This document shows, piece after piece, positions 21,357 to 55,279 of a stretch of 64,000 bases of DNA. The position numbers and the translations under genes were made by a program. The stretch spans positions 14,078 to 78,077 of the forward strand of contig DATJOW010000017.1 of the NCBI GenBank assembly GCA_035506715.1, read 5' to 3'. This stretch comes from Candidatus Acidiferrum sp. (GTDB lineage: Bacteria; Verrucomicrobiota; Verrucomicrobiia; Limisphaerales; UBA11358). The notes under the pieces were generated by a model. It searched no databases, was not told the DNA's origin, and saw only the letters and a program-made list of their open reading frames with translations. Position 1 is the first letter of the stretch. Every line of letters begins with the position of its first letter.

Positions 21357-22784
21357 TCATAAATTGATAATCTCCATTCGATGATTACCCGCCGGATCGT
21401 CAGGCGGATCGCGCTGGGTCAGGATGGCGAAGGCGCCCGGGAGCCGATGCCGCCGCACCCAGTCTTTGACGTATGCCGTCCACGACGGCGGCGGTGCCGG
21501 CTCATGCTCCGGAATTACGCCGTGAGAAAATCGGAGGTCCGAGCAGGTTTTGGCGCGGGGGCTGATGGCAACCACCGGCACCGGCAGGCGCAGCGCCGCC
21601 AGCCATCGCGCGGTGGCGCCGCTGGCCGATGGCACAAAGACGGCCGCCGGCTGAAGGTACTCGAGGCTGGCCTCGACGCTCACGGCGATGAGGTGCTCGG
21701 GCCGGATGCGGCCGGTCAGGTCCACCCCGGTGTACCTTTCTTTGACGGTAACATGGCGGCGGGCCGGCTCCACGGCCGCCGCAATTTTGGCCAGCATCGC
21801 CACGGCCTCCACCGGGAAGGCGCCCATGGCCGATTCGCCCGAGAGCATGACGCAATCGGTGCCATCGAGAATGGCGTTGGACACGTCGGTCGCTTCCGCG
21901 CGCGTCGGCAGACGATAGGCGGTCATGGACTCGAGCATCTGGGTGGCAGTGATGACGGGCCGGGCGCGCCGATTGGCCCGGCGCATGATGTCCTTCTGCA
22001 CCACGGCAATCCGTTCGATGGGAACTTCCACACCCAAGTCGCCGCGGGCGATCATGATGCCATCCGCGGCGTCGAGAATCTCGTCGAGCCGTTCGAGGGC
22101 GCGCGACCGCTCGATTTTCGCGATCAGAAACGGGTCGTGGCCGAATTCGCGCGCGGCCTGCCGCACTGCTTGCACGTCTGCGGCGCCTTCAACAAAAGAC
22201 TGGCTCACGGCGTCCACGCCTTCGGCAAGCGCAAATTTCAGGCACTCGCGGTCCCGCTCAGTGAAGGCGCTGATGCCGAGGCTGATCCCCGGCAGGTTCA
22301 GGCCCTTGCGCGAGCGGAGTTCGCCACCCACTTTAACCACACATTTCACCTCGGCGCCGCTGACCTCTGCAACTTCGAGCTGGAGGTAACCGTCGTTGAG
22401 CGACAGGGGGTCGCCCCGTTTTACCACCTGCGGCAGGCGCGAAAAGCTGACCGAAACGCGCCGGGCATCGCCGGCGACCTGGGCCGTGGTGAGCGTGAAG
22501 CTGTCACCGGCTTTCAATTCGATTTTATCCACGCCGAGGTTGCCGATGCGCATTTTGGGGCCGGACAAATCCGCCATGATGGCCACCGGCCGGCCGACGG
22601 CCCGGGCGGCGGCGCGCAGGTTCAGGATATTCTGCCGGTGCGACGCGAATTCGCCGTGGGAGAAATTGAGCCGCGCGACGTTCAGTCCGGCGCGGATCAT
22701 TTGTTCCAGCACCGGCTGGGAATTTGACGCCGGGCCGATGGTGGCGACGATTTTGGTTTTGTGGGCGGGCAAAGGGTTTTCCAT
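21357..22784 (-). CDS. pyk: Pyruvate kinase
   Basis: KIVATIGPAS, ARLNFSHG, MIARGDLGVE and the ATQMLESM motif. 475 aa. Confidence 0.95.
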   Translation of the reverse strand: MENPLPAHKTKIVATIGPASNSQPVLEQMIRAGLNVARLNFSHGEFASHRQNILNLRAAARAVGRPVAIMADLSGPKMRIGNLGVDKIELKAGDSFTLTTAQVAGDARRVSVSFSRLPQVVKRGDPLSLNDGYLQLEVAEVSGAEVKCVVKVGGELRSRKGLNLPGISLGISAFTERDRECLKFALAEGVDAVSQSFVEGAADVQAVRQAAREFGHDPFLIAKIERSRALERLDEILDAADGIMIARGDLGVEVPIERIAVVQKDIMRRANRRARPVITATQMLESMTAYRLPTRAEATDVSNAILDGTDCVMLSGESAMGAFPVEAVAMLAKIAAAVEPARRHVTVKERYTGVDLTGRIRPEHLIAVSVEASLEYLQPAAVFVPSASGATARWLAALRLPVPVVAISPRAKTCSDLRFSHGVIPEHEPAPPPSWTAYVKDWVRRHRLPGAFAILTQRDPPDDPAGNHRMEIINL

Positions 22785-28148: not shown

Positions 28149-30482
28149 CTATCTCCGGCGCCCGCCACCAGCCCGGACGGGTGCCGAGCGGACGGGAGCG
28201 GGCCGTACAGCCGGGCGGGCATTTTGCGCCCGCGCCTGGCCCAGTTGGCGGGCATAATATTGCCGGTCGAGCTCCGCGGCGTTCTGGGCGAGTGCCTGGG
28301 GGGCGGCGCCGGCAACCTGGCGACCGCGCGGTTGCGAAGCCGCCACCGGCGCAGCAGTTCCGGTGTTCCGGCCCCCGGTGCGGGATGCCGATACCCCTTG
28401 AGCCGCGGCGCTCTGTTTGCGTTGGCCGGCGCCTTGAACCGGAGCGTAATAATCCCACTTGCCGCCCGCTCCGCGGCGATACCAGCCATCGCTTTTGCGT
28501 TGGTAGATGTTTCCGTCCGGCGACGCATAAAGGTCGCGGCCGCCGCCAGGAGACTGCCGGACGGTATCGAGCAACTGCGCGCCGCCGGGCACGGAACCCG
28601 CGCGGGCAGTGGTTGGCGGACGGGAATAAGGATTCAAGGCAAGCGTGTTGGGCGGCGGACTCCAGGGCGTGGGGCGGGCCCCGCTTTGGAAGCGTCCGTA
28701 CAAGGCCGGATAGCCGCCGTAAACAACCGGCCATCCCGGCGAACTGGCGGCGTCGGCGCGGCGATCATGGGGCGTGACGTGATTGCCGGATTGCCAACGA
28801 TCGTAAATGTTGTCAATCACGGCCGCCCGGAGACCGCCCCGATTATTCCACGAAGGCCGCCACGTCCACCATCCGTACCAGGGCGAGTAAAGATAACCAT
28901 AACCCCACGTGTAACCCCAGCCGTAATAGGTCGTGGTCGTCGTGCTGCACCACGGTTCATAATTATACCCCGTGCCATAAACCATCGTGCCATCATCCTC
29001 ATAAGCGCCCGTGTACCCGGAGGTGTAGCCGACCTCCACACTATTGGTGTCGGCATCGTAAACGCGGACAAAGGTTGCGTAATAGACCGGGGAGTCGGGC
29101 GGGATGGTGTAAATTTCCTGCGGCACCTCCGCCGCCACCTGCCACGGCCCGGCCGGGGCCGCCGCCGTGAACCACACGCCCTTGTCCGCGGCATAATAGC
29201 TTTCGCCGGCCCGGATGACCGGCAATGGCGCATTGACCGCGTACAGCAGGGAGGTGCCCGCAATCGGCTTGAACTGCGGTTCGCCGTCGTAAGCAAACTC
29301 GAGTTTCGTGTCACGCCTGACCGTTGCCGTGGTGGGAACCGAGCTGGCAATCAGCGCCTGCTCCGCCTCGGGCGTGCCGGGCACGGAAGCCAGCACCACC
29401 GCCTGCGGACTGCCGCGGGGAATATCGGCGAAGTCATCGGGCAAATCCTTCGGCGCCACGTAAGTCCACGGGCCGTCGAGCGAGTTTGCTCGGAACCAGC
29501 GGCCGGAAAGCAGCAGGTAAGCCTGGCGTTCGGGGACGTAAAAGAAGAGCTGGTTGTCCGAGTTTGCCGCGTACTGCAATTGGGTGCCGCGGATGGGCTG
29601 AAAATTCGGCGCGCCATCCGTCATCAGCAATTCCGCGGGCCGGGTGCTGACGAGGATGCGCGGCCGGCCTTGTCCCGCGGCCGCCGCCGGGGCGTTGGTG
29701 GATGCCGGGGAAAACGCGGCCACATCCGGCGGCGGGATTTGGGCCAGCGACCAGGGACCGGCGAGCGCATCCGCGGCAAACCACTGACTTTCACCCGAAA
29801 GGTACAACCGCCCGCCGGCCGGGTCGCGCACCAGCAAGGCCGGCGTGTTGATGACGCGTTCGAGGGCCGTGCCGGCCATCGGTCGGAACACCGGCTCGCC
29901 GTCGATCACCACCAGCACTGACGGGTTGGTCACCCAGATAATATCCGGCGGATTGTGATTCAACGGCTGGGTCTGCGGCCGGGCGGCCGCCTCCTCGAAT
30001 CCGAGCGCCGTGATCAGGTAATCGAGCGACACGGTGCGGGCGCCGCCCGGGAACAGTTCACGCACGAGGGCCAGGTCGTTGCTGCCGTTGTCCGGCGCGT
30101 CCGGGAAACTGCCCCGGGTGATTTCCAGGCGGTCGAGCGCGACCAGCCGGGTGGAGCGATCCACAGTGCCCTGCGCCTCGAACCAGACGACGCCGAGTTG
30201 CTCCTTTTTAGTGCGGGCCGGTTTCACCCCGACCACGGCCTGGGCGACGAACCAGTTGGTGGTCCAGCGTTCCACCTGCGGCAGATACATCGTGACGGTG
30301 TTTCCGTTGGTCGAGCGAACGCGCGGCCAGGGGGAGTCTTCGTCCAGGGCCGTCGGGGCCGCGAGCATCGCCGGGGCCAGCGCGAGCACCAGGCTGATGA
30401 TTTGTATTCCGCAGGCAACCGGGCTGCCAATCCGGCGCGGCTCGAGCAAGTGAACAGTTAGTTTCATATTGCGCTCCTTCAT
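28149..30482 (-). CDS. Large exported repeat protein of unknown function
   Basis: Hydrophobic signal region (ISLVLALAPAMLAAP), three internal repeats of about 65 aa (DG-P-F-PI-GT-L-Y ... G-WF ... GPW), an aromatic/Gly block (YYGWGYTWGYGYLYSPWYGWWTW) and an Arg/Ala/Gly-rich tail. ATG at 30482 overlaps the upstream stop as ATGA. Confidence 0.7.
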   Translation of the reverse strand: MKERNMKLTVHLLEPRRIGSPVACGIQIISLVLALAPAMLAAPTALDEDSPWPRVRSTNGNTVTMYLPQVERWTTNWFVAQAVVGVKPARTKKEQLGVVWFEAQGTVDRSTRLVALDRLEITRGSFPDAPDNGSNDLALVRELFPGGARTVSLDYLITALGFEEAAARPQTQPLNHNPPDIIWVTNPSVLVVIDGEPVFRPMAGTALERVINTPALLVRDPAGGRLYLSGESQWFAADALAGPWSLAQIPPPDVAAFSPASTNAPAAAAGQGRPRILVSTRPAELLMTDGAPNFQPIRGTQLQYAANSDNQLFFYVPERQAYLLLSGRWFRANSLDGPWTYVAPKDLPDDFADIPRGSPQAVVLASVPGTPEAEQALIASSVPTTATVRRDTKLEFAYDGEPQFKPIAGTSLLYAVNAPLPVIRAGESYYAADKGVWFTAAAPAGPWQVAAEVPQEIYTIPPDSPVYYATFVRVYDADTNSVEVGYTSGYTGAYEDDGTMVYGTGYNYEPWCSTTTTTYYGWGYTWGYGYLYSPWYGWWTWRPSWNNRGGLRAAVIDNIYDRWQSGNHVTPHDRRADAASSPGWPVVYGGYPALYGRFQSGARPTPWSPPPNTLALNPYSRPPTTARAGSVPGGAQLLDTVRQSPGGGRDLYASPDGNIYQRKSDGWYRRGAGGKWDYYAPVQGAGQRKQSAAAQGVSASRTGGRNTGTAAPVAASQPRGRQVAGAAPQALAQNAAELDRQYYARQLGQARAQNARPAVRPAPVRSAPVRAGGGRRR

Positions 30483-32908
30483 CCTTCGCTCTGGATCCCC
30501 TCGATGAATCCCTGCGCGCCTTCCTGGACGTTGGCGGCATTGGCTTCATCGGTGTCAATGTGCATGGCCAGCTTGTAGTTCGGATCCACACGAACCAGCA
30601 CATCGCCAAACACGAGTTCCCTATCCCCGTCAATCCGCACGCGCACGACCGACTTGTCGCGCACGCCGTAGCGGAGGGCATCCTCGGGCGTCATGTGAAC
30701 GTGACGCAGCGCGCAGATGACGCCGCGGTCGACTTTTACCCTGCCGGTCGGGCTTTCGAGAACGCACCCGGGCGTGTCGGCGATGTCGCCGCTTTCGCGA
30801 ATGGGCGGGTGCACGCCGAGTTTGAATTGCTCCGTCATCGCAATTTCAATCTGCGTGTACTTGCGGGCCGGGCCGAGCACGCGGACGCGCTCGATGCGGC
30901 CTTTCGGCCCGACGATGGCGAGTTGTTCCTGACAGGCATACTGGCCGGGCTGCGAAAGATCGGCGTGTTTGGTGAGCTGATGCCCCTTGCCGAACAGCGC
31001 CTCGACATGTTCCTGCGTGAGATGGATGTGATGGGCCGAAACTTCGACGAGAAACGGAACTTGTTTCTGGGCTTCGAGCACCTTCGTGATGTAGGAGCGG
31101 CTGAGGGCGCGCAACGCCTCGCGTGCCATCATGCGCTCCTCGTCCGTGGGCACCACCAGCACGGCGATCTTCGAATCTTCGGCGGTGATGCGGCAGATCT
31201 CGTCGAATCCGCGCGCCTGGCGGTTGCGCACCTCATCCAGCGAAATACCCATGCAATCCAAGCCTTGCAATGCCAGCGCGCGCACTTCGGCGCTGCCCTG
31301 GCCGATGCCGCCGGTGAAAACCACCGCGTCCAGGCCGCCCATGGAGGCGACGTACGCGCCGATGTATTTGCGCACGCGGTAGCAATACGTCTTGAGCGCC
31401 AGCAACGCGCGGGGCTGCTCCTCATCCGCCGCCTTGAGCACCTCGCGCATGTCGCTGGAAATGCCGGACAATCCCAGCAACCCGCTTTTCTTGTTCAACA
31501 TCTCTTCGCTCTGACTGGCGGTGCGGCCCTCGGTTCGCTCAAGAAAGGCGAGCACGCCGGCGTCCACGTCGCCGCAGCGGGTGCCCATGATGAGGCCCTC
31601 GGCGGGTGTGAAGCCCATGGTCGTATCCACCGACCGGCCGTGGTCCACGGCGCAGAGGGACGAACCGTTGCCGAGGTGGCAGCTCACCAGCCGCAGTTCG
31701 TTCGGGCGGCGCTTGAGAAATTCCGCGGCACGCAGATTGACGTAGTGATGCGACGTGCCGTGGAAGCCGTAACGGCGCACGGCCTTTTTTTCGTACAGCT
31801 CGTAGGGCAAGCCGTAAAGGTACGCATACGCCGGCAGCGTGTGATGGAACGCCGTGTCGAAGATCGCCACGTGGGGCACGGCGGGAAACAGCTTTCGCAT
31901 CTCGCGGATGCCCGCGACGTTCACCGGATTATGCAACGGCGCCAGCGGACTAAGCTCGTCGAGTTGGGCCAGCACTTCATCGGTGATGAGCGTGCCTTCC
32001 GTAAATTTCTCGCCGCCGTGAACGACGCGATGGACGACGACGCTGACCTCCCCGGCTCCGCCAATGACGCCCGTGTCCTTTGCGGTGAGTTCGGCGAGCA
32101 CAGCCTTGAACGCCTCGGCGTACCCGCCTTTGGATAGCTCGCGTTTCAATTCGCCTTTCGGCCCCTGATGCTTGAGGCGCGTGCCGTCGAGCCCAATACG
32201 TTCGATGAGACCCCGCGCCTGGCGGGATTCGTTGGCTGTATCGTAGAAACAATATTTGACCGACGACGAACCGCAATTGATGACCAGAATTTTCTCGGGC
32301 CGCTCGCCCTTGAGCTTGAGGCCGTACGGATCGTCGCTCTGGCGCAACGCCGCCGCCGCCTTGGCCGGGTCGGCCATGATGAACTTCACCCGTTCGGCTA
32401 TCGTACGCGAAATGAATTGCACCGCCCCGGGCGCGGCAACGATGGCGGACTGGAACAGCGACACCGGGATGAGCAGAATTTCGCAGCGGGTTTCGGCGAT
32501 GAATTCCGCCAGCAGCGGATTGCCGGTCATCAAGGCGCCCTCGCCGAAGGTGTCGCCGGCTTTCAATTGTCCGAACACCTGGCGGGCGCCGCCGTCCCCG
32601 AGGGCCGAAGCCGTCACGGCGCCGCCGAGCACGACATAGAAGTGCGTGGCTTCCGCGCCGCAGTGGGCGATGGCTTCATTGGCTTCGAAAGAGACGATGC
32701 GCGAAGCCTCCGCCAGTTTGGCCAACAGGTCATCCGCAAACCGGGTGAACAACGGGACCTTGGCTTTGAGGAAAGCGATGATTTCAGCTTGCGTTTTCAA
32801 AATCCGGTTGTCGGTTGGGAAAGCCAAAGCGCGCGGCCGGGCGCGATGCCGCCTCCTCCGTGCCGGGCAGGGGGAGAGGCTTTGGATACCAGGGGTTCCT
32901 GCCACCAA
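30479..32908 (-). CDS. Tri-domain fusion: cyclic-nucleotide-binding domain + acetate kinase + PduL-type phosphate acyltransferase
   Basis: cNMP domain about aa 42-165 (FGEGALMTGNP, RCEILLIP). AckA about aa 206-602 (ILVINCGSSSVKY, HRVVHGGEKF, GFHGTSHHYV, SCHLGNGSSLCAV, GTRCGDVD, VFTGGIGQGS). PduL about aa 617-795 (VSAHHIHLT and ALRHVHMT repeats). The start is uncertain: 32908 is a TTG, with alternatives GTG at 32905 and TTG at 32800. Confidence 0.9.
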   Translation of the reverse strand: MVAGTPGIQSLSPCPARRRRHRARPRALAFPTDNRILKTQAEIIAFLKAKVPLFTRFADDLLAKLAEASRIVSFEANEAIAHCGAEATHFYVVLGGAVTASALGDGGARQVFGQLKAGDTFGEGALMTGNPLLAEFIAETRCEILLIPVSLFQSAIVAAPGAVQFISRTIAERVKFIMADPAKAAAALRQSDDPYGLKLKGERPEKILVINCGSSSVKYCFYDTANESRQARGLIERIGLDGTRLKHQGPKGELKRELSKGGYAEAFKAVLAELTAKDTGVIGGAGEVSVVVHRVVHGGEKFTEGTLITDEVLAQLDELSPLAPLHNPVNVAGIREMRKLFPAVPHVAIFDTAFHHTLPAYAYLYGLPYELYEKKAVRRYGFHGTSHHYVNLRAAEFLKRRPNELRLVSCHLGNGSSLCAVDHGRSVDTTMGFTPAEGLIMGTRCGDVDAGVLAFLERTEGRTASQSEEMLNKKSGLLGLSGISSDMREVLKAADEEQPRALLALKTYCYRVRKYIGAYVASMGGLDAVVFTGGIGQGSAEVRALALQGLDCMGISLDEVRNRQARGFDEICRITAEDSKIAVLVVPTDEERMMAREALRALSRSYITKVLEAQKQVPFLVEVSAHHIHLTQEHVEALFGKGHQLTKHADLSQPGQYACQEQLAIVGPKGRIERVRVLGPARKYTQIEIAMTEQFKLGVHPPIRESGDIADTPGCVLESPTGRVKVDRGVICALRHVHMTPEDALRYGVRDKSVVRVRIDGDRELVFGDVLVRVDPNYKLAMHIDTDEANAANVQEGAQGFIEGIQSEG

Positions 32909-34355: not shown

Positions 34356-36091
34356 ATAGTGCCTCCGGAGGTTATAACAGCGGCTCCAGCTTGAAACCGT
34401 CGAACCGCCTGTTCAAGGTTAAAAAACATCCGCTCGCGGCCCAAGGTTTTCCCCAGCGTCGATTTTTGAACCAAGGCCAGCGGTTCCGGATTCAAGGCAG
34501 CCAGCCACAGGCTGATCCCGGACTGCTGGAGCTTCTTTTCCGCATCGGTCAGCATCATGAGCGCGGTGTATTCCAAGTCCGGGATCGCGCTGCAATCGAT
34601 GACGACTACTTGCGGCTTGTATTCATGGATGAGCGGCCACATCAGGTCCCCGATCCGCTGGGCATTGGCAAAATGGATGATGCCTTCGGTTTTGAGGATT
34701 AACAGGCCGGGGCAGAATTCGTCTTCCGGATGTTCGCTGGAACGCGGACGGAACACCGAGGTCCCGGGTTTTCGCCCCAGGACAAAGACCGGCCGGCGGT
34801 TGCCGTGATAGATCAGGGCCAGGAGCGAAAGCAGGACGGCTACCAGGATGCCCTGCAAAGTGCCGATGAACACGACGCCGGCTGATGCGGCCAGGGCCCA
34901 GCTGAATTCCATGACCCGCATTTTGGCGATGGCGCGGAATTCGCGGATTTTGATCATCCCGGCGCACGGCACGACGACCACGGCAGCCAGGGTTGCCTGC
35001 GGCATGAGATGGACCAGCGGCGCCAGAAAGAAGAGCACGGCGACCACCACCGTCCCGGTCACTAGACCGGCAATCTGGCTGCGGGCGCCGGACCGGCGAT
35101 TGACCGCCGTCTGTGAAGTCCCGCCGCCGGAGGGCATGTTATGGAACAGCCCGCCGACGAGATTTGCCAAGCCCAAGGCCAGCAGCTCGCGATTCGCCTC
35201 GGGCCGCGGTTCGTCGGCGCCACGGAAGGCCCGCCCGGCCGCCACCGTTTCGACGAAACTCATCAGCGCGATGCCCAGCGCGGCGGGCCAGAGATGCATA
35301 AACCAGGACAGGTCCGGAAGGCCGAACGGCGGCAAGCCGCCCTGGACTTCTCCCACCCGCTCAATGCCGAAACGATCCAGGCCCAGCAGTCCGGACACGG
35401 TGATCCCGGCCAGCACGGTGACGAGCGAGGCCGGCACGCGCGGCAGGAACTGCTGCAGGCCCAGCTGCAGGCAGAGCATGGCCAGCGCAAGCAGCATCGT
35501 GGGTCCCGACGCCTGCGGGAGATGATGAGCGATGGCAGCAAGGTTGTGGAAGAAATGACCCTTGGCAAAATGAACTCCCAGTAATTTGGGGACCTGATCC
35601 ACCACGATCACGAGACCAATGCCCGCTTTGAATCCGGTGAGCACCGGTTCGGAGATGAAATTGGCAATCATGCCGAACCGCAAGAGCGACGCCACGGAAA
35701 GCGCGGCCCCCACCAGCACGGCCAGCGTCGCCGCGCCGGTCATCAAGGCGTCGTGGTCGCCGCCGGGAACCGCCTGATGCAGGGCCCCGGCGGTCAGGAT
35801 GGCCAGCGTCGAGGTGGTGGTCACGCTCAAGGGACGCGACGTGCCCATGACCGCATAGACCGCTATCGGCACCAGGGCGGTGTAGAGTCCGACGACCAGC
35901 GGCAGGCCGGCGATGGCGGCATAGGCCATCGCCTGCGGGATGACGACCGCCGCGGCTGTCAGTCCGGCGACCAGATCACCGCGGAGCCATTTCCGCTCAT
36001 AGACAGCCAACCAGCCTGTCGCGGGAATCCAGCGCGCCAAGGAGTGCGGGCGGGAGGGTGTCGGAGCCTCGCTCAAAAATTCATTCGCCAT
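34352..36091 (-). CDS. SulP family anion transporter with C-terminal STAS domain
   Basis: N-terminal DLVAGLTAAAVVIPQAMAYAAIAGLP, multiple TM helices, C-terminal STAS (GLLILKTEGIIHFANAQRI ... VVIDCSAIPDLEYTAL). Confidence 0.9.
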   Translation of the reverse strand: MANEFLSEAPTPSRPHSLARWIPATGWLAVYERKWLRGDLVAGLTAAAVVIPQAMAYAAIAGLPLVVGLYTALVPIAVYAVMGTSRPLSVTTTSTLAILTAGALHQAVPGGDHDALMTGAATLAVLVGAALSVASLLRFGMIANFISEPVLTGFKAGIGLVIVVDQVPKLLGVHFAKGHFFHNLAAIAHHLPQASGPTMLLALAMLCLQLGLQQFLPRVPASLVTVLAGITVSGLLGLDRFGIERVGEVQGGLPPFGLPDLSWFMHLWPAALGIALMSFVETVAAGRAFRGADEPRPEANRELLALGLANLVGGLFHNMPSGGGTSQTAVNRRSGARSQIAGLVTGTVVVAVLFFLAPLVHLMPQATLAAVVVVPCAGMIKIREFRAIAKMRVMEFSWALAASAGVVFIGTLQGILVAVLLSLLALIYHGNRRPVFVLGRKPGTSVFRPRSSEHPEDEFCPGLLILKTEGIIHFANAQRIGDLMWPLIHEYKPQVVVIDCSAIPDLEYTALMMLTDAEKKLQQSGISLWLAALNPEPLALVQKSTLGKTLGRERMFFNLEQAVRRFQAGAAVITSGGTI

Positions 36092-37565
36092 GGCTTTTCA
36101 ACTCAAAGACGTGGTATTGCCACGGAGCCACATCCAGATAGAGCCCGCGGGATTGCAGTTCGGTTCCATCGCGCTCGTAAACGGCATCGCTCAACAAATC
36201 GCGCAATCGCCAGGGTGTGCCGCCGAGGTCGGCAAAGGGGAGACGGACATAACCCTGGCTGGCATGACCGGCATAATTGACGCAGGCAATCAGGCGTTCG
36301 CCGCCGGCCTTTTGCCAGGCAAAAACGATAAAGGCGTCGGACGAGCCGTTGCCCTCCCAGGCGGGGGCAGATTCGAGCAATTGCCATTGGCCCTGCCGGA
36401 CGACCGGCCGGCGCAAGATTTCGAGCAGCCGGGCGTAGAACAATTTCAAATCGCCGTTGACGGCTTCCTGCGGCGCGCGGACGAGATGCGGCGAAATCCG
36501 TTTGCGGCGTCCGTCGAATTGTCCCTGATGAAAGAAACGCAGGCCGGGCGAGAGAAAAGTGATGACGGCAGCGGCGCGATGAACTTCATCGGCAAAAGCG
36601 GCGGCGGCGCGAGGCTCATCGTGGTTTTCGAGAAACCGGGCGAGTTTGTTCTGGTAATCCGGCGCGGCGCGGAAATGCTCGCGCACCGGCCGCGCGCGGC
36701 CTTCGCGGAGGCGGTCGTACAGCCGCTTGTCGTAAGTGTAATCGAACCCCTGTTGTTGCAGTGTCCATTCCAAATCCCAATACACTTCGGCCATGAAGCA
36801 AAACTCCGGTACCTGTTCCCGCACCCGCCGGGTGGCGTCCGGCCAGAAGGCTCTGGCCGGTTTGCCCCAGGTCCGCTCGAAGACTTCCGGCAAGACCAGC
36901 ATGGCCATGTCGCAGCGCACGCCGTCGCACTGGCCGGCGATCTTCAACAACTCGCCGGTCATGGCTTCCGTCGTTGCAAGCTCGGCGTAGTTGAGCTGCA
37001 AGGTGTCCGGCCAGCCGGGGAAATACGGATCGCGCCCGTGGGCCAGCAGCAAGTCTCCGCGCTGGCGCTTGACCCAGGTGTAGTTTTGCGGCGACCGCGC
37101 CAGATCAAGCTCCGTCCCCGAAACATAATACTCGGGATGTTCCTCAACCCATGGATGGTCCAGGCCGGTGTGATTGGGCACGAAATCGAGCATCAGTTTC
37201 AGGCCGCGCTGGCGCAGCCGTTCACGCAGGCGCGCGAGCGCCGCGCCGCCGCCGAGGTTTCGCCCCACGGTGTAGCCAGTGATGGCAAACCCGGAACCGG
37301 CGATGTCGTCCTCGCGCAAATCGGGAAGCGTTTCCTCAAATTCCCTCCGCCATTCCGGATGGTTCCGGGAAATTTCCCGTCCGGCCCGGCCGGTCTGCCA
37401 GACGCTCAGCAACCAGACCCAGTCAAAACCAGCGTTGGCGAGCTGATCCAGTTCGGCGTCGGGCACATCCTCGAGCGTCGCCGGGCGGCGGAGGCTGCGC
37501 GAGAGTTCCGTGAGCCACACGCGGGTGTTGATTTGGAACAGCGAAGGGTATCGAACGGTCGTCAT
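36081..37565 (-). CDS. GH13 alpha-amylase-family glycoside hydrolase (cytoplasmic)
   Basis: GH13 regions I-IV: LDFVPNHTG, DGVRCDMA, FCFMAEVYWD, FLENHDEPR. No signal peptide. Overlaps neighbouring genes at both ends. Confidence 0.85.
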   Translation of the reverse strand: MTTVRYPSLFQINTRVWLTELSRSLRRPATLEDVPDAELDQLANAGFDWVWLLSVWQTGRAGREISRNHPEWRREFEETLPDLREDDIAGSGFAITGYTVGRNLGGGAALARLRERLRQRGLKLMLDFVPNHTGLDHPWVEEHPEYYVSGTELDLARSPQNYTWVKRQRGDLLLAHGRDPYFPGWPDTLQLNYAELATTEAMTGELLKIAGQCDGVRCDMAMLVLPEVFERTWGKPARAFWPDATRRVREQVPEFCFMAEVYWDLEWTLQQQGFDYTYDKRLYDRLREGRARPVREHFRAAPDYQNKLARFLENHDEPRAAAAFADEVHRAAAVITFLSPGLRFFHQGQFDGRRKRISPHLVRAPQEAVNGDLKLFYARLLEILRRPVVRQGQWQLLESAPAWEGNGSSDAFIVFAWQKAGGERLIACVNYAGHASQGYVRLPFADLGGTPWRLRDLLSDAVYERDGTELQSRGLYLDVAPWQYHVFELKSHGE

Positions 37566-40330
37566 TTGCCGGGTTCGGCGGCGGCTTGGGGATTGCGCGG
37601 ACGTTTTGCCGGTTTCTCCAGTTCCACCACCGCGGCAATTTTGCCGTGTTCGAGCACTTGTTCCGCGCTGGTGGTGGCGAACAGGTGCATGGCGCGGGCG
37701 ATGACTCCGGTCCAGCCCGTCTGGTGGCTGGCCCCCAGGCCGGCGCCGTTGTCGCCGTGGAAATATTCGTAGAACAGGATGAGGTCGCGCCAGTGCGGGT
37801 CATCCTGGAATTTTCGCTCGCCATCGTTCACGGGGCGGCGGCCATTTTTGTCCTTCAGAAAAATGCCGCCCAGCCGGCGCGAAATTTCCTCGGCGACCTG
37901 ATACAGGTTCATCTGCCGGCCGGAGCCGGTGGGACATTCGACGGTAAAGCCGTTGCCGAAGAAGGCGTAGTACTGGAGCAGCGCCCGGATGATCAGCCCG
38001 TTCACCGGCATCCAGATGGGACCGCGCCAGTTCGAGTTGCCGCCGAACATGCCGGTGTCGGATTCGCCCGGCACGTAGGCAACGCGAAATTCCTGTCCGT
38101 TGACATTGAAAACGTAGGGATGGTCGGCATGGAACCGCGAGAGCGAGCGAATGCCATAGGGACTGAGGAATTCCTTTTCATCGAGCATCTTTGCCAGCAC
38201 GCGCCGGAGCTTGTTTTCGTCGAGGATCGCGCCGAGCCGTCGGCCGGCCTGCCCAACTCTGCCCGGATCATGGATGAAAGTTCTCAATTCCGGACGCGCC
38301 GCGATGAAATCCGCGAAGCGTTGCATGAATTCCGGATATTTTTCCCGAAATTTACCTTCGAACACTGTGACGGCACAGAAGGGCAAAAGCCCGACCATGG
38401 ACCGGACCTTCAATCGCTGGGCCTGGCCATCCGGCAATTGGAGCACGTCATAGAAAAAGCCGTCTTCCTCATCCCACATGCCGGTGTCACTTCCGGCATG
38501 GATGGTGGCCGAGGCAATGGAGACAAAATGTTGGACGAACTTGACGACCATGTCGGCATAGGTCGCCTTGTGCATGGCCAGTTCCGTCGCGATCTCCAGC
38601 ATGTTCAGGCTGAACAGAGTCATCCACGCCGTGCCATCGGCCTGCTCGAGGTAGCCGCCGGTCGGCAGCGGCGCGCTGCGGTCGAAGACCCCGATGTTAT
38701 CGAGCCCGAGGAATCCGCCCTCGAAGGTGTTTTTGCCGGAGCGGTCCTTGCGGTTGAGCCACCAGGTAAAATTCAGCAGCAGCTTCTGGAAACTGCGTTC
38801 CAGCCATTCGATGTCGCCCTGGCCCGTGCGCGCCTTTTCCAGGCGATACGTAAAAATGGTGGCCCAGGGATGCACGGGGGGATTGACATCGCCAAAATTC
38901 CATTCGTAGGCGGGAATCTGGCCGTTCGGGTGGAGATAGGTCTCGCGCAGCATGAGGTCGAGTTGTTGCTTGCCAAAATCCACATCCACCAGTGTCAGCG
39001 GCAGGACATGGAACGCAAGGTCCCACGCGGCATACCAGGGATATTCCCACTTGTCCGGCATGGAGATGACATCGGCATTGTACATGTGATGCCATTGTCC
39101 GTTGCGCGGCGCGGCCTTGCTCGACGGCGTGTACGGGTCGCTCCCCCGCTCCTCGAGCCAGCGGTTCACGTCGAAATAATAATACTGTTTGGACCACAGC
39201 ATCCCGGCCAGCGCCTGGCGCATGACGTTGGCCTGGTCGGCATCGAGCGAACTGGGAATGACCGAGGCATAGAACTCGTCGGCTTCCTGCCGGCGCGCCT
39301 GCATGATTCCGTCAAAATGTTTGCCGAAGGCGCAATTGTCTTTGCCATAAGTTTGCTCCACGGCCGCCGGCACCACCGTAGTCAGCCGCAACCGGACGAC
39401 CTCGACTTTGCCGGCCGGCACCGTCAGGCGGTAATGCGCCGCAGCCTTGGTGCCGGTTTGCTTCGGATTCACGGCTTTGCCCTGCTTGTGGACGACGTAG
39501 TTGTTGAAGGCGTCCTTGACAAACGGGGTCCGGTTTTCGCCGCCGAACAACTTTTTCGCGTTGGTTTCGTTTTCCGCGAACAGCAGCGCCGCCTTGCCGT
39601 CGCAGTAGAGATAGCGCTCGCCCAAATCAGGCTCGGCGGCCTGGACCACGGCGGATTTGCCGGCCATGGCTTTCAAAAACGGCCGGGGATTGTCCTGTCC
39701 CCATGACCAGCGGTTGCGGAACCAGAGCGTCGGCAGCAGATGAATCTCCGCCGGGTTTGGCCCGCGGTTGTGGACGCTGATCTGGATCAGGATGTCCTCG
39801 GGCGATTCCTTGGCATATTCCACAAACACGTCAAAGTAACGGTCCCGGTCAAATACGCCGGTGTTCAGGAGTTCATATTCAAATTCCTGGCGGCCCCGGT
39901 TGCGGTTGGTGTGGACGATTTGATCGTAAGGATAGGCGTCCTGGGGATACTTGTAGAGCCACTTCATGTAGGAGTGCGTCGGCGTACTGTCGAGGTAGAA
40001 ATAATATTCCTTCACGTCCTCGCCGTGGTTGCCTTCGCTGTTGGTCAGACCGAACAAGCGCTCCTTGATGATGGGATCCTTGCCATTCCAGAGCGCCAGC
40101 GCAAAACAAAGCCGCTGCCGGTCATCCGAAATACCCGCCAGACCGTCCTCGCCCCAGTGGTAGGCGCGCGCGCGGGCCTGGTCATGGCTGAAATACTCCC
40201 AGGCGTTGCCGTTGTCACTGTAATCTTCGCGCACGGTGCCCCACTGGCGTTCGCTCAGGTAGGGGCCCCATTTTTTCCACGCGGCTTTCTGTCCGCGCGC
40301 TTCTGCAAGCCGGACTTCCTCTGCGTTCAT
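37562..40330 (-). CDS. GH63-like (MGH1/YgjK-type) glucosidase, cytoplasmic
   Basis: Conserved N-terminus WKKWGPYLSERQWGTVREDYSDNGNAWEYFSHDQARARAYHWGEDGLAGISD. (alpha/alpha)6-type C-terminal half. 922 aa. AAGGAG sits 8 nt upstream of the ATG. Confidence 0.8.
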   Translation of the reverse strand: MNAEEVRLAEARGQKAAWKKWGPYLSERQWGTVREDYSDNGNAWEYFSHDQARARAYHWGEDGLAGISDDRQRLCFALALWNGKDPIIKERLFGLTNSEGNHGEDVKEYYFYLDSTPTHSYMKWLYKYPQDAYPYDQIVHTNRNRGRQEFEYELLNTGVFDRDRYFDVFVEYAKESPEDILIQISVHNRGPNPAEIHLLPTLWFRNRWSWGQDNPRPFLKAMAGKSAVVQAAEPDLGERYLYCDGKAALLFAENETNAKKLFGGENRTPFVKDAFNNYVVHKQGKAVNPKQTGTKAAAHYRLTVPAGKVEVVRLRLTTVVPAAVEQTYGKDNCAFGKHFDGIMQARRQEADEFYASVIPSSLDADQANVMRQALAGMLWSKQYYYFDVNRWLEERGSDPYTPSSKAAPRNGQWHHMYNADVISMPDKWEYPWYAAWDLAFHVLPLTLVDVDFGKQQLDLMLRETYLHPNGQIPAYEWNFGDVNPPVHPWATIFTYRLEKARTGQGDIEWLERSFQKLLLNFTWWLNRKDRSGKNTFEGGFLGLDNIGVFDRSAPLPTGGYLEQADGTAWMTLFSLNMLEIATELAMHKATYADMVVKFVQHFVSIASATIHAGSDTGMWDEEDGFFYDVLQLPDGQAQRLKVRSMVGLLPFCAVTVFEGKFREKYPEFMQRFADFIAARPELRTFIHDPGRVGQAGRRLGAILDENKLRRVLAKMLDEKEFLSPYGIRSLSRFHADHPYVFNVNGQEFRVAYVPGESDTGMFGGNSNWRGPIWMPVNGLIIRALLQYYAFFGNGFTVECPTGSGRQMNLYQVAEEISRRLGGIFLKDKNGRRPVNDGERKFQDDPHWRDLILFYEYFHGDNGAGLGASHQTGWTGVIARAMHLFATTSAEQVLEHGKIAAVVELEKPAKRPRNPQAAAEPGK

Positions 40331-41026: not shown

Positions 41027-41842
41027 TCAGTATTTCTCCGGCACAAATCTCCGGCCTTTGAGCGCAGCCTGGTCATCATAGGCTTCCTTCATCGCTCGCT
41101 TCGGCAGCTTGATCTTCTCGCGGGGCACCTTCTGGTAGGGGACGAGTTTGAGCAAGTGGGCAATGCAGTTCAGGCGGGCGCGCTTTTTATCGTCCGACCG
41201 CAGGATGTGCCACGGGGCCCACTTGGTGTCGGTCGCTTTCAGCATCTGGTCGCGGGCGCGCGAGTACTCAAACCATTTGCTGCGCGACGGCAGGTCCATG
41301 GGACTGAGCTTCCACTGGCGCAGCGGGTCGGTAATTCGCGCCTCGAAGCGGCGCCGCTGCTCCTGGTCGCTGACTTCAAGCCAGAATTTGATGAGCTTGA
41401 TGCCGGCGTTCGTGATAAAACGCTCAACCACCGGGCATAGCTCGAGGAAATGCCGGTGTTGCTCCTTGCTGCAAAAACCCATCACGTGCTCGACCCCGGC
41501 GCGGTTGTACCAACTGCGGTCGAAGATGACGATTTCGCCGGCCGCCGGGAAATGCTGCATGTACCGCTGCATGTACATCTGGGATTTCTCGCGGTCCGAC
41601 GGCGCGGGCAGCGCAACGACGCGAAAGACGCGCGGGCTGACGCGCTCAGTGATGGCGCGGATAGTGCCGCCCTTGCCGGCGCCGTCGCGGCCTTCAAAAA
41701 TGATGATCACGCGCAGTCCTTCGTGTTTGACCCACTCCTGCAAATGGCATAGCTCCGCCTGCAACCGGCGCAGTTGTTTCTCGTATTTCCGGGCCTTCAA
41801 TTTTTCGGTACCCTTTGATTTTTCTCTGTTTTTTTTGCTCAT
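41027..41842 (-). CDS. ppk2: Polyphosphate kinase 2 family protein
   Basis: IIFEGRDGAGKGGTI Walker A, FDRSWYNR, lid region. 271 aa, single PPK2 domain. Confidence 0.9.
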   Translation of the reverse strand: MSKKNREKSKGTEKLKARKYEKQLRRLQAELCHLQEWVKHEGLRVIIIFEGRDGAGKGGTIRAITERVSPRVFRVVALPAPSDREKSQMYMQRYMQHFPAAGEIVIFDRSWYNRAGVEHVMGFCSKEQHRHFLELCPVVERFITNAGIKLIKFWLEVSDQEQRRRFEARITDPLRQWKLSPMDLPSRSKWFEYSRARDQMLKATDTKWAPWHILRSDDKKRARLNCIAHLLKLVPYQKVPREKIKLPKRAMKEAYDDQAALKGRRFVPEKY

Positions 41843-45304: not shown

Positions 45305-46744
45305 TCAGAACAGCGAGTAAACCATGCCGGTCTGGACGCGCCAGACATCGCCATGGGCACCGTCGTTCTCTTCCTTGTAGCCGTAGAGGCATTCCAAGCC
45401 GACGCTGAGCCGTTTGCGGAGCTGCCAGACCAGGTTCCCGCTGGAATAATACGTTTTGTGGTAGGCGGCCCCGGTCTGGGCTTGCTCATTTTGCAGATCC
45501 ACGAAGCCGAACGTGGCGGTGGAACGGAACTTTTCCGACCATTGGTGCGTGTAACCGCCCATGGTGGCCAGGTACGTCAGCGACTGCAATGAACCGTCCG
45601 CGTTGTACGCTGCGTCGCCGCCGTTGAACCCGGTGTAGGTGAAGTTGTCGTTGCAGAAGGCGAAAATGCCCTGGCCGTAGGTGAACTGGGCCTGGACCGA
45701 GTCATGCTCGAAAACGTTTAAACTGGTGGACAGGTTCAAACCCCATCCCAAAACGTTCTGCTGACCGAGGGTCGGGCTGTTGGCGCCGATATCGCGCAGG
45801 ATGGTGGCAAACTGCACATGGCCCCACTTGGAGTCTTCCCAACGAACATTGAAGCCGCCATCCGGCAAATGGTTAACCGAGGAAGCGTCAGTGCCCGGTG
45901 TGCCGGCGGTATCAACCTGCGATGAGGGCTGCTGCACTCCGAAGTTTATCTGCCATCGATCATTGAGCGGCAGCATGTAGCGCACCGTCGCCTGCCGCGC
46001 AAAGATCATCGAATTCGGCCCTTCGAAGTCCACCGTGTCCGGCCAGACGTCCGGGTCTTCGAAGATGCTGTACGTGAAGCCGGCCGTGACATTGTAAATC
46101 TGGCCGTATAATTGTTTGAGGCGATAGGACATGCCGCTGCCGCTGCCGAAAAAGTCGTTGTTGTAGTAGAAGCGGAAGTCGCCCGGCATGTTGGGCGCCC
46201 GCACGTCCATGCTCAGGGACGAGCCCTTGGCGGTCATGTTGAACTGCTCGCCGCCACCGTATTGCGGGGTGTGTTCCATCGGGATGGTGGCGGTGACAAA
46301 CCGGTCCGGATTTCCGGAATTCTGGTTGTCCTCCATCATATCCACGCGCGGCTTCGCGTTGAACTTGATGAGGGCGTCCGTGTTGGGCACCGGGATGAAC
46401 CCCCGATATTTGGGATCAAGCGTGAGGTCGTTCAACCGCGGTGCGGCTTCCTGCATGTCGTTCATGTTGGCCCGGTCCGCCACGGGGCTCGGGTGCCCGA
46501 TGATGGGGTTGGTCGGCATGGCAAAATACACACCCTCACCGACGTTGGTTCCCGGCGCCGCGACCATCCCCCTCTGCTTTTCCAGTTCGGCAATTTTCTG
46601 CTGCATCTCTTCCATGCTTTTTTGCATGGCCTGCATGGCGGATTTGAGCTGGTCGAGCTCGGACGACTGGGCCGGCGCCGCGAGGACACCGGCGGCCATC
46701 AACGAAATGACCACGATTGAAGTTTTCATGGTTGCTGGTTTCAT
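45305..46744 (-). CDS. Outer-membrane porin with N-terminal coiled coil (DcaP-like architecture)
   Basis: Signal peptide, coiled coil ELDQLKSAMQAMQKSMEEMQQKIAELEKQ, alternating beta-strand pattern, C-terminal ...GMVYSLF with terminal Phe. Confidence 0.7.
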   Translation of the reverse strand: MKPATMKTSIVVISLMAAGVLAAPAQSSELDQLKSAMQAMQKSMEEMQQKIAELEKQRGMVAAPGTNVGEGVYFAMPTNPIIGHPSPVADRANMNDMQEAAPRLNDLTLDPKYRGFIPVPNTDALIKFNAKPRVDMMEDNQNSGNPDRFVTATIPMEHTPQYGGGEQFNMTAKGSSLSMDVRAPNMPGDFRFYYNNDFFGSGSGMSYRLKQLYGQIYNVTAGFTYSIFEDPDVWPDTVDFEGPNSMIFARQATVRYMLPLNDRWQINFGVQQPSSQVDTAGTPGTDASSVNHLPDGGFNVRWEDSKWGHVQFATILRDIGANSPTLGQQNVLGWGLNLSTSLNVFEHDSVQAQFTYGQGIFAFCNDNFTYTGFNGGDAAYNADGSLQSLTYLATMGGYTHQWSEKFRSTATFGFVDLQNEQAQTGAAYHKTYYSSGNLVWQLRKRLSVGLECLYGYKEENDGAHGDVWRVQTGMVYSLF

Positions 46745-46775
46745 AAATCAATTTCGGGTTGCAGGATTTTAAGGG

Positions 46776-47882
46776 TTACTTGAGCGAACCGAACAGGTCC
46801 AGGTCCAGTTCCCTGACGATGTAGTCAATCGCCTCGGTGGCCCGCACGCTGTTGCCGGCCTCGTTCACGGGAGGTGAAAATCCGACGACGGCCATTTTAC
46901 CCGGAACCACGGCGACAATGCCGCCGCCCACCCCGGTTTTGGCGGGCAGGCCGGCGTTGTAAGCCCAGGCCCCGGATTCATCGTAGAACCCCGCCATCAT
47001 CATCACCGCCAGAACGCGCGGCACATACTTCGAATCCAGGCAGCGCTCCTGGGTGATCGGGTTCACCCCCCCGTTGGCCAGCGTTGCGCCCATGACGGCC
47101 AGTTGTTTCGCGGTCACGCCGATGGAGCATTGTTTGGTGTACACATCGGTCGCCTCCGGCGGGTCACAGAACAGGTTTTCGTTGTTGTACAGGATCCAGG
47201 CGATGCCGCGGTTGCGGAAATTCGTGGCCGCCTCGGATTTGTAAACCTCGTCAATCAACTTGAGTTTCTCGCCGGCAAATTTGCTTTGATAGGCCAGAAT
47301 CTTCTCCCAGCGATCCTCGGGACCGTTGGCCTTGACCAGGCTGACCGACGCCATGGCCCCGGCGTTCACCAGCGGGTTGACCGCCTTGTTGTTGTGCATG
47401 CCCAGCGCCACCACCGAGTTGAACGGCATCCCGGTCGGCTCGACGCCGATTTTCTTGAACACCGCCTCTTCGCCGGATTCCTGCATGACCTGGGCCATGG
47501 TGAACACCTTCGAGCAGGACTGGATGGAGAAGGCGTAGTCAATGTCGCCGGCGCTGTACACTTTGCCGTCCGCGGTGACGATGACCACCGCGAACAGGTT
47601 CGACGGCACGCTGGCAAGGTACGGAATGTAGTCGGCGTTCTTGCCCGACTTGTCGTCTTTGAATTTGTTGTAGGCTTCTTCGACGACACGCTGCAGATCA
47701 GGCGTCGCCGAGGGAGCAGCCGCGGTTTGGCCTGCGGCCGGTTGGGCTGCAGACTTGTTGTTATGAACCTGGATACAACCAACCACGGCGAGCAGCGAAA
47801 CGACCAGCACGACTGCGCTCAGGTGGCGAAGGCTGAGTCCGGTTTTTTTAGTTTTCATGGTTGTGATCATGGTGGTTTTCAT
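46776..47882 (-). CDS. glsA: Exported glutaminase A (lipoprotein-type signal)
   Basis: YIPYLASVPSNLFAVVIVTADGKVYSAGD, FSIQSCSKVF (beta-lactamase-like SxxK), KTGVGGGI. Signal LSAVVLVVSLLAVVGC. The start is ambiguous (ATGs at 47918, 47882, 47870, 47858). Confidence 0.85.
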   Translation of the reverse strand: MKTTMITTMKTKKTGLSLRHLSAVVLVVSLLAVVGCIQVHNNKSAAQPAAGQTAAAPSATPDLQRVVEEAYNKFKDDKSGKNADYIPYLASVPSNLFAVVIVTADGKVYSAGDIDYAFSIQSCSKVFTMAQVMQESGEEAVFKKIGVEPTGMPFNSVVALGMHNNKAVNPLVNAGAMASVSLVKANGPEDRWEKILAYQSKFAGEKLKLIDEVYKSEAATNFRNRGIAWILYNNENLFCDPPEATDVYTKQCSIGVTAKQLAVMGATLANGGVNPITQERCLDSKYVPRVLAVMMMAGFYDESGAWAYNAGLPAKTGVGGGIVAVVPGKMAVVGFSPPVNEAGNSVRATEAIDYIVRELDLDLFGSLK

Positions 47883-47940
47883 CTTTGTAATCTTGGATTG
47901 GGATTTAATCTGGTTCATCAGCGGATCGCGACAGTAAGGC

Positions 47941-49005: not shown

Positions 49006-49071
49006 ATTCAGTTCAATTTTGGTTTGCAGTTTGTTTTTGCCCGTTGGTTCACAATTTGAGTTCGCTGAAAT

Positions 49072-50721: not shown

Positions 50722-50741
50722 AGATTTGGGAGGGTATTGGT

Positions 50742-52469: not shown

Positions 52470-52476
52470 TGATTAA

Positions 52477-55239: not shown

Positions 55240-55279
55240 AATCAATTTTTGGTCTTGGTTGTTGGTCGGTTCAAAATTG

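Follow-up and report, generated by a model that had tools for sequence, protein, structure and literature searches.

On the minus strand of a 64-kb stretch of contig DATJOW010000017.1 (assembly GCA_035506715.1, Candidatus Acidiferrum sp.), a single gene encodes a protein in which a domain of the CAP/cyclic-nucleotide-binding fold, an acetate kinase (Ack) module and a PduL-type phosphotransacylase module are joined on one chain. The same fusion is conserved in hundreds of genomes of Verrucomicrobiota, Planctomycetota and Bacteroidota; the architecture is common, not rare. The best overall explanation, to which we assign a probability of about 0.7, is that the protein would be a bifunctional enzyme carrying a regulatory domain of this fold that responds to something other than cAMP or cGMP. 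The whole 64-kb stretch is referred to here as the window and all coordinates are positions in it, while residue numbers are those of a 773-residue protein unless the 809-codon frame is named.

A conserved three-domain fusion

An initial annotation of this DNA had proposed three complete modules within one frame, and profile searches bore this out, as all three Pfam domains were matched above their gathering scores. In the numbering of the 809-codon frame, these were cNMP_binding at residues 72-155 (E 1.1e-16; 60.9 bits versus a gathering score of 27.5), Acetate_kinase (PF00871) at residues 206-596 (profile positions 1-392 of 392; E 2.1e-146; 488 bits versus 22) and PTAC/PduL (PF06130) at residues 621-794 (profile positions 2-175 of 176; E 1e-78; 264 bits versus 25). 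The nucleotide ranges that had been given for the modules correspond to residues 42-165, 206-602 and 617-795 and were accurate in relation to the Pfam positions, and both of the motifs cited for the PduL module, SAHHIHLT and LRHVHMT, were found in the translation. Among the NCBIfam models, the scores were 486 bits for TIGR00016 (ackA; cut-off 293) and 264.5 bits for NF011652 (phosphate propanoyltransferase; cut-off 209), whereas the N-terminal part gave weak matches alone, to CRP-like and encapsulin-2B models.

The frame of 809 codons, beginning at a TTG, exists as described in the initial annotation, being the maximal open reading frame (ORF) at this position, but the protein itself is probably shorter. 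Homologues are 768-773 aa long and their first residues (MKTKPEIIAFLK) align with those encoded from the TTG at 32800 in the window (LKTQAEIIAFLK), and we therefore consider that translation probably starts at this codon to give a protein of 773 aa. The first 36 codons of the longer frame are rich in Arg and Pro, were matched by none of the homologues and are probably untranslated. An alternative TTG start may give a protein of 782 aa.

It is very likely that the middle and C-terminal parts of the chain are, respectively, an acetate kinase and a PduL-type phosphotransacylase, and, judging by their residues, there is very little doubt that the pair functions. The kinase had been described as full length with all hallmarks, and this description held over every profile position and residue considered. 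The module and solved acetate kinases share 45-48% identity (matches in the Protein Data Bank (PDB) with E values of 1e-122 to 1e-119). The residues that we take to be the hallmark set of the family (N7, S10-12, K14, R91, H123, D148, H180, N211, R241, R285, G331, I332 and E384 in the numbering of Methanosarcina thermophila) are all there, as N175, S178-180, K182, R258, H290, D315, H347, N378, R408, R452, G498, I499 and E554. Each of these was kept in 212-231 of the 231 family sequences, with the exception of the position of Ile332, which was Ile/Val. The adenosine-pocket motif of the kinase (31298-31312, minus strand; residues 497-501) reads G-G-I-G-Q-G in 119 of 126 sampled three-domain proteins, nearly all of them near relatives, and G-I-G-E-N/H instead in 67 of 79 stand-alone Acks as well as in Ack-PduL two-domain proteins. 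A PPK2 gene lies near the fusion whose Ack has the G-G-I-G-Q-G form (Table 1).

The PduL module, likewise called full in the initial annotation, spans 174 of the 176 profile positions and aligns gap-free to the PduL of Rhodopseudomonas palustris (5CUO; E 8.5e-45; 42% identity). Based on the residue roles reported for that enzyme (PMC4784909), the ligands of Zn1 are H591, H593 and E652 (His48, His50 and Glu109 of 5CUO) and those of Zn2 are H700, H702 and H747 (His157, His159 and His204). Arg103, Ser127 and Arg194 correspond to R646, S670 and R737, and the equivalents of Gln74, Gln77 and Gln107 are likewise there. Conservation within the family exceeded 93% for each of these six residues and 96% for the Zn ligands and the Arg103 and Ser127 equivalents.

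An AlphaFold2 model from an alignment of 19 sequences supported these assignments, with a mean predicted local distance difference test score (pLDDT) of 86.8 and a predicted template modelling score (pTM) of 0.83. When the model was compared to solved structures with Foldseek, its kinase part matched 1G99, 6IOY and 2IIR with template modelling (TM) scores of 0.92-0.94 and a root-mean-square deviation (rmsd) of 1.9-2.3 A, in agreement with the two-domain ASKHA fold, and its C-terminal part matched 5CUO with a TM score of 0.95 and an rmsd of 1.1 A, in agreement with the double beta-barrel fold. The connector between the two modules prolongs the C-terminal helix of Ack, and the PduL module has no free N-terminal encapsulation peptide. 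No solved PDB chain spanning more than one of the modules was found in the Foldseek search of the whole model, and the sequence searches agreed.

In order to determine how widely the fusion occurs, as the initial annotation had suggested, we searched a collection of 5.8 billion proteins (NCBI, ENA, JGI and Logan) and GTDB contigs from one genome per species. The best 120 protein matches were examined and were 82-100% identical to the window protein, with lengths near 770 aa and the same three Pfam domains in all 120. In the GTDB contigs, 455 stretches encoded a relative, and the 80 of these that were kept gave full-length alignments at 63-89% identity; by ORF clustering, a single full-length ORF (median of 772 aa) was present in 77 of the 80 loci. 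Most carriers belong to the Verrucomicrobiota (Chthoniobacterales, Udaeobacter, Limisphaerales and Verrucomicrobiales). Those in the Planctomycetota include several Candidatus Brocadia, among them the complete genome AP021856, along with Pirellulaceae, Gemmataceae and Phycisphaerae, and a few carriers are Bacteroidota. Nine contigs with the gene (L004, L007, L011, L015, L018, L022, L032, L036 and L053) are titled Bifidobacterium, delta proteobacterium, Margulisiibacteriota, Eisenbacteria, Limnocylindrales or Binatia. Since the genes on them are 74-82% identical to Verrucomicrobiota copies, these conflicting titles of metagenome-assembled genomes were not taken at face value, and mis-binning or mislabelling is probably a likelier cause than recent transfer.

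This conservation also bears on the concern, raised in the initial annotation, that the long frame is an artefact in which an assembly chimera or a frameshift has joined separate genes. Short entries consisting of the cyclic nucleotide monophosphate (cNMP)-binding domain alone, or of that domain and part of Ack, do occur on long contigs, and one copy of the gene lies in three frames. Such an artefact is nonetheless extremely improbable given that the single ORF is intact in species-level loci from three phyla, that the intact form was found in all of the best proteins, which come from independent sources, that the linkers are themselves conserved, and that the broken copies, which come from error-prone long-read assemblies, still align over their full length. 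Frameshift and chimerism were rejected on the basis of this conservation across related proteins and loci. The copy in three frames, from a long-read metagenome contig (L081:4989-7315), was called as genes of 200, 216 and 70 aa and aligns end to end despite the splits, and frame splits of this type would explain many short cNMP-only database entries as fragments.

More distant relatives were found in a library clustered at 50% identity, which held at least 13 three-domain representatives of 763-799 aa, with 35-52% identity and matches to residues ~10-771. Two-domain relatives were also identified, comprising Ack-PduL proteins of 593-649 aa that lack the N-terminal domain (e.g. P0134 and P0136, starting MQILVINCGSSS) and cNMP-Ack proteins of 570-580 aa that lack PduL. 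In some of the three-domain relatives at 35-47% identity, inspection by eye indicated loss of the Ack NxGSSSxK loop and Arg91 (P0149, P0133, P0128 and P0124) or of the PduL His-x-His pairs (P0141, P0132 and P0130), and in those distant lineages one catalytic module may have become a pseudo-enzyme.

The N-terminal domain and its possible ligands

The initial annotation had described the N-terminal part as a cNMP-binding beta-barrel, and the fold was supported not only by the PF00027 match but by the AlphaFold2 secondary structure (N-terminal helices, an 8-stranded barrel and C-terminal helices), by phmmer matches in the PDB to PKA regulatory subunits, PKG, CRP, MlotiK1 and NtcA (E values of 1e-10 to 1e-5) and by Foldseek matches to the cyclic-nucleotide-binding domains of PKG. 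The ligand-binding half of that description fared less well, as both phosphate-contacting residues have been replaced. The equivalent of the phosphate-binding cassette, FGEGALMTGNPLLAEFIAE, aligns gap-free to those of PKA RI-alpha and yeast Bcy1, with F-G-E-L-A-L-I-Y-G-T-P-R-A-A-T-V-K-A in RI-alpha versus F-G-E-G-A-L-M-T-G-N-P-L-L-A-E-F-I-A in the fusion. The phosphate-binding Arg (R209 of RI-alpha and R82 of CRP) is Leu96 in the fusion, and the Thr/Ser that contacts the phosphate is Glu99. Across the 217 family members that bear the domain, Arg did not occur once at the former position (Leu in 84, Val in 68, Met in 17, Thr in 16, Ala in 14, Ser in 10, Gln in 3 and Asn in 2), and the latter was Asp in 190, Glu in 17 and Asn in 6. 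The Gly-Glu that contacts the ribose 2'-OH was retained (G86 and E87, with Glu in 207 of the 217), and conservation also extended to the Phe, Gly/Asn and Glu that open the cassette and to the Ala residues after it. These frequencies point to a pocket that is conserved and under selection, but unlike those of proven cAMP/cGMP receptors, and which therefore would bind another ligand or none.

Comparable replacements have been characterized in other proteins. The family 2B encapsulin's domain, which has Trp in place of the Arg, does not bind cAMP, and members of this fold that lack the Arg are, as summarized in the same report, not responsive to cAMP and bind haem, 2-oxoglutarate, chlorophenolacetate or peptides (PMC11550324). 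In trypanosomatid PKA, purine nucleosides are bound instead of cAMP (PMC10959531). Because the substitutions in the present family differ from those in both proteins, its ligand cannot be read off from them. Nevertheless, by analogy with these Arg-less domains, we consider it likely that the N-terminal domain is not a sensor of cAMP or cGMP. The initial annotation had also proposed second-messenger control of the enzyme pair and had named the pocket residues as the place where that idea could fail; the lack of Arg, and the Asp or Glu at the Thr/Ser position in 207 of the 217 members, left the proposal unsupported.

When the N-terminal domain was searched alone, its closest relatives were all fragments of the same Ack family, indicating that it constitutes a dedicated subfamily. 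The search, which was aimed at other architectures with this type of domain, returned same-family fragments only and gave no lead to a ligand. Directly after the C-terminal helices of the domain is a linker with the motif D157-P158-Y159-G-L161-x-L163, which was 92-94% conserved in the 217 sequences and reads D-D-P-Y-G-L-K-L in the window (32315-32335, minus strand; residues 156-162). In the AlphaFold2 model this segment is coil with a pLDDT of 67-71, and its function might be that of an intrinsic ligand or of a strap for docking. DPYQLIDL is likewise the start of P0131, a protein without the sensor domain that may come from a truncated gene call.

Several readings of the domain were weighed against this evidence. 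That it is a genuine sensor of cAMP, cGMP or another cyclic nucleotide, gating the acetyl-phosphate node, would be in keeping with a PF00027 score above the gathering threshold, with the cAMP/cGMP-binding domains of PKA, PKG, CRP and MlotiK1 being its best solved relatives and with the conserved Phe-Gly-Glu of the cassette. We judge this very unlikely because the contacts to the cyclic phosphate are gone family-wide: the Arg, whose loss abolishes cAMP responsiveness in characterized cases (PMC11550324), is lacking in every member, and an acidic residue in place of Thr/Ser would repel the phosphate. A different view is that the domain binds no small molecule and serves as a structural, dimerisation or self-liganded module, as does the domain of KCNH channels, in which case the D-P-Y-G-L-x-L linker may fill the pocket or fasten the domain to Ack. 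The cyclic-nucleotide-binding homology domains of those channels use an intrinsic Tyr-Asn-Leu ligand. Peptide ligands of KCNH proteins are mentioned in the encapsulin study as well (PMC11550324), and the Arg-less cassette, a long C-helix resembling that of CRP dimers and the strong conservation of the linker right after the C-helices would all fit a module of this sort. However, the specific conservation of the pocket, above all the Asp in 190 of the 217 members, points to a binding function under selection; the linker was modelled as coil without a docked strand, which speaks weakly against an intrinsic ligand; and Ack-PduL proteins lacking the domain occur (P0134 and P0136), so the enzyme pair does not depend on the domain for folding. 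On balance, we regard the absence of any small-molecule ligand as rather unlikely. We tentatively propose, at somewhat less than even odds, that the domain has been re-tuned to a metabolite other than a cyclic nucleotide (e.g. a nucleoside, or a pathway intermediate that is cationic or neutral) or is self-liganded by the linker, and that it gates the bifunctional Ack-PduL enzyme.

Gene neighbourhood and proposed role

The features of the fusion and of the genes near it are listed in Table 1. The start codon of a 777-aa protein overlaps the stop codon of the fusion (ATGA, 30479-30482), and because of this overlap the two genes are probably co-transcribed. The 777-aa protein, which had no match in Pfam or NCBIfam, has a hydrophobic N-terminus and a C-terminal half rich in Gly, Tyr, Trp and Pro, and its gene sits between those of the fusion and a phosphoketolase (Xfp), the latter beginning 40 bp after it. 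Homologues with 61-62% identity adjoin the fusion in L001 and lie between the fusion and xfp in L081, where the order of fusion, (rpiB), 777-aa protein homologue and xfp repeats that of the window.

Table 1. Coordinates in the window of the three-domain fusion, its parts and neighbouring genes.
Feature	Position	Strand	Basis or remarks
Maximal ORF	30479..32908	-	809 codons from TTG
Most likely coding sequence, 773 aa, begins LKTQAEIIAFLK	30479..32800	-	Homologue lengths and aligned starts
N-terminal CAP/cyclic-nucleotide-binding-fold domain, residues 1-154	32339..32800	-	PF00027, phmmer, AlphaFold2, Foldseek
Phosphate-binding cassette equivalent FGEGALMTGNPLLAEFIAE, residues 85-103	32492..32548	-	Alignments and family frequencies
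Linker between N-terminal domain and Ack, residues 155-169, motif D-P-Y-G-L-x-L	32294..32338	-	Conservation; coil in model
Acetate/propionate-family kinase module, residues 170-560	31121..32293	-	PF00871, TIGR00016, PDB matches, residues, Foldseek
Helical segment joining Ack to PduL, residues 561-584	31049..31120	-	AlphaFold2 helix 554-577; Pfam boundaries
PduL-type phosphotransacylase module, residues 585-758	30527..31048	-	PF06130, 5CUO alignment, conservation, Foldseek
777-aa protein	28149..30482	-	No Pfam/NCBIfam match
Phosphoketolase Xfp, 820 aa	25646..28108	-	XFP_N, XFP, XFP_C; NF003619, 1521 bits
Pyruvate kinase	21357-22784	-	
PPK2	41027-41842	-	
DcaP-like porin	45305-46744	-	
Glutaminase	46776-47981	-	
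Asparaginase	47941-49005	-	
Class I/II aminotransferase-fold protein, 549 aa	49072-50721	-	Size of aspartate-4-decarboxylase
Asp-Al_Ex/TrkA_C permeases (two)	50742-52469 and 55280-56971	-	
Orn/Lys/Arg decarboxylase, 922 aa	52477-55245	-	

The counts of neighbouring genes that follow are from the 80 GTDB loci and refer to genes on the same strand and downstream of the fusion unless stated otherwise. An L-serine dehydratase was the most frequent, being found in 32 loci, usually 26-92 bp past the fusion, followed by pyruvate formate-lyase (PflB) in 28, its activase in 24 and an MFS transporter in 16, while a DcaP-like porin was present in 24, mostly upstream. Pyruvate kinase occurred in 11 loci and PPK2 in eight, with the window itself counted once in each, and glycogen phosphorylase in seven. 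A phosphoketolase was located within 8 kb of the fusion in eight loci, and directly downstream in L007 and L011; L081, found separately, has one also. Phosphoketolase was thus rejected as a universal partner of the fusion, the serine dehydratase, formate-lyase and activase being commoner. The serine dehydratase (SDH_beta and SDH_alpha; L054:10338-11963 and 31 other loci) has an N-terminal extension of ~90 residues with a twin-arginine-like motif, RRTFIIRNAVIGAAAVMTG, which is unusual for a cytoplasmic Fe-S dehydratase.

The wider surroundings of the fusion are strongly co-directional. In a greedy selection of ORFs from ~21.3 to 63.3 kb (21357-63316), all but one were on the minus strand, with G+C contents at third codon positions of 0.75-0.85, in a run of more than 40 kb; the lone selection on the plus strand (36090-37772) is a shadow of a minus-strand gene of the amylase family (36081-37565). 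An alpha-amylase-family protein and a GH63-like hydrolase are also encoded on the minus strand of the window, and a co-directional block resembling those for amino-acid catabolism or acid resistance lies at 45305-56971. Consistent with the statement in the initial annotation that the window has no microcompartment shell genes, tblastn of the 64 kb with hand-entered PduA and EutN probes gave a best E value of 2.1. The further description of the transacylase as the microcompartment-associated type stood with regard to the PduL family, but not with regard to a microcompartment, as there was no encapsulation peptide and no shell genes were found.

Based on the domains and neighbourhoods, we propose that the fusion would be a cytosolic enzyme of ~773 aa with both steps of acetyl-CoA/acetate interconversion on one chain, acting at the ATP-yielding end of fermentation. 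The C-terminal di-zinc phosphotransacylase would interconvert acyl-CoA and Pi with acyl phosphate and CoA, and the middle acetate/propionate-family kinase would interconvert acyl phosphate and ADP with carboxylate and ATP. The N-terminal domain would be an allosteric or oligomerisation module for a ligand other than cAMP or cGMP, as substitution of the two phosphate-contacting cassette residues extends across the family but the remaining pocket positions are conserved. In the window, acetyl phosphate from the co-oriented phosphoketolase could be converted to acetate and ATP by Ack or to acetyl-CoA by PduL, whereas in most relatives acetyl-CoA may be derived from the serine dehydratase and pyruvate formate-lyase (serine to pyruvate, and pyruvate to acetyl-CoA and formate). 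As these neighbours would all feed acetyl-CoA or acetyl phosphate fermentatively, the fusion likely performs the last ATP-yielding steps to acetate.

An alternative substrate was also considered, namely that the protein is mainly an enzyme of the propionate/2-ketobutyrate branch (propionyl-CoA to propionyl phosphate to propionate), as a counterpart of TdcD and Pta in anaerobic threonine/serine degradation. The PduL module scored above the subfamily cut-off of the NCBIfam phosphate propanoyltransferase model, and the commonest operon among the relatives (kinase, serine dehydratase, formate-lyase, activase and transporter) parallels the tdc operon of E. coli; given this tdc-like set, C3 substrates are possible too. 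Conversely, the kinase was below the propionate-kinase equivalog cut-offs (436 versus 580) and met the generic ackA subfamily model only, the phosphoketolase that neighbours it in the window makes acetyl phosphate, and both enzyme families commonly take C2 and C3 substrates, which makes the distinction a matter of degree. We consider a role mainly in the propionate branch to be unlikely.

It is important to note that several points weigh against the explanation that we prefer, of a bifunctional enzyme with a regulatory domain for a ligand other than cAMP or cGMP. Linkage to xfp was seen in about one in ten related loci only, so coupling to phosphoketolase may be local, and since Xfp would supply acetyl phosphate from outside, a fused Ack-PduL would gain nothing from channelling in the window. 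Not every member of the family would be bifunctional, given the degenerate Ack or PduL motifs in some distant members, and the start at 32800 was assigned from homologues only. With regard to the N-terminal domain, the case against cAMP and cGMP is an argument by analogy with other Arg-less domains, and with the Gly-Glu for ribose contact retained, the ligand may yet be nucleotide-like.

Acetyl phosphate and the pair formed by phosphotransacetylase (Pta) and Ack are central to overflow metabolism, fermentation and protein acetylation, and to our knowledge direct allosteric control of this pair is known for class II Pta only. The three-domain enzyme thus offers a testable handle on the control of substrate-level phosphorylation in soil and freshwater Verrucomicrobiota, planctomycetes and anammox Brocadia, and with it a large natural family joins the small number of Arg-less domains known for the cyclic-nucleotide-binding fold. 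If the domain is indeed re-tuned or self-liganded, it would decide whether acetyl phosphate goes to ATP or to acetyl-CoA, and would represent a new ligand class and a new type of output for the fold, a central metabolic enzyme pair, with a wide distribution across Verrucomicrobiota, Planctomycetota (anammox Brocadia among them) and Bacteroidota. There is also a practical consequence for annotation: members of the family are named in their source annotations only as acetate kinase or acetate/propionate family kinase, and as these names hide the phosphotransacylase, Pta may be wrongly recorded as absent when pathways are reconstructed for these genomes.

Comparison with known systems

The presence of Ack and a phosphotransacylase on one chain, highlighted in the initial annotation, was confirmed, but is less new than was implied, since multidomain proteins with Ack and PduL, and the idea of substrate channelling in them, were noted in 2016 by Erbilgin, Sutter and Kerfeld (PLoS Biol; PMC4784909), who proposed that such a protein replaces Pta and channels acyl phosphate. 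Like the window protein, those proteins have PF06130 and an acetate kinase in one chain, are without an encapsulation peptide and are encoded outside of microcompartment loci. Unlike it, they were covered in one sentence, were uncharacterized and were reported with no mention of an N-terminal domain of the cyclic-nucleotide-binding fold. In our literature search, no description of the three-domain protein was found and PMC4784909 was the only source that mentioned Ack-PduL fusions, nor did we find a curated NCBIfam model for the fusion. Fusion of Ack to PduL, and PduL outside of microcompartments, are therefore known ideas, although uncharacterized, and it is the addition of the N-terminal domain that is undescribed in the literature found.

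Each catalytic module closely resembles its solved counterparts. In common with R. palustris PduL (5CUO/5CUP), the C-terminal module has the fold, the six Zn ligands, the phosphate- and CoA-contacting residues and the Phe116 of the dimer interface, whereas Lys70 of that protein is Ala in the fusion, as read from the alignment. The R. palustris protein is a microcompartment enzyme, in contrast to the fusion, which has no encapsulation peptide, in whose window no shell genes were found and in which PduL sits behind a kinase. The classical acetate kinases of M. thermophila (1G99/1TUY), Thermotoga (2IIR) and Porphyromonas (6IOY) share with the Ack module the sequence identity, structural similarity and hallmark residues described above, but the fusion has extra domains at both ends and its close clade has GIGQG in place of the usual GIGEN.

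With regard to the N-terminal domain, the closest parallels are the family 2B encapsulin's cyclic-nucleotide-binding-fold domain and trypanosomatid PKA, for which the absence of a cAMP response has been determined experimentally (PMC11550324, PMC10959531). In each, as in the fusion family, the fold has been retained and the whole family has other residues in place of the phosphate-binding Arg, namely Trp in the encapsulin, Thr/Asn in trypanosomatid PKA and Leu/Val/Met in the fusion family. An acidic cassette residue that would be incompatible with a cyclic phosphate is also a shared feature of the comparison, with Glu at cassette position 5 in trypanosomatid PKA and the acidic residue at position 15 in the fusion family. 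What sets the fusion apart from these Arg-less domains is its output domain, which is a metabolic enzyme.

Regulatory domains at the N-terminus of enzymes of the acetate/acetyl-CoA node are known from two other systems. The class II Pta of E. coli and Salmonella has an N-terminal regulatory domain that is unrelated in kind, and mycobacterial Pat combines a cNMP domain, which has a canonical cAMP site, with a GNAT domain in a cAMP-dependent acetyltransferase that controls acetyl-CoA synthetase. The NCBIfam model of Pat (NF058543) was weakly matched by the fusion (E 0.0014), in keeping with their having the same fold. Thus, the fusion is like both Pta and Pat in carrying an N-terminal regulatory domain, presumptively so in its own case, on an enzyme of this node, and differs from both in its catalytic partners.

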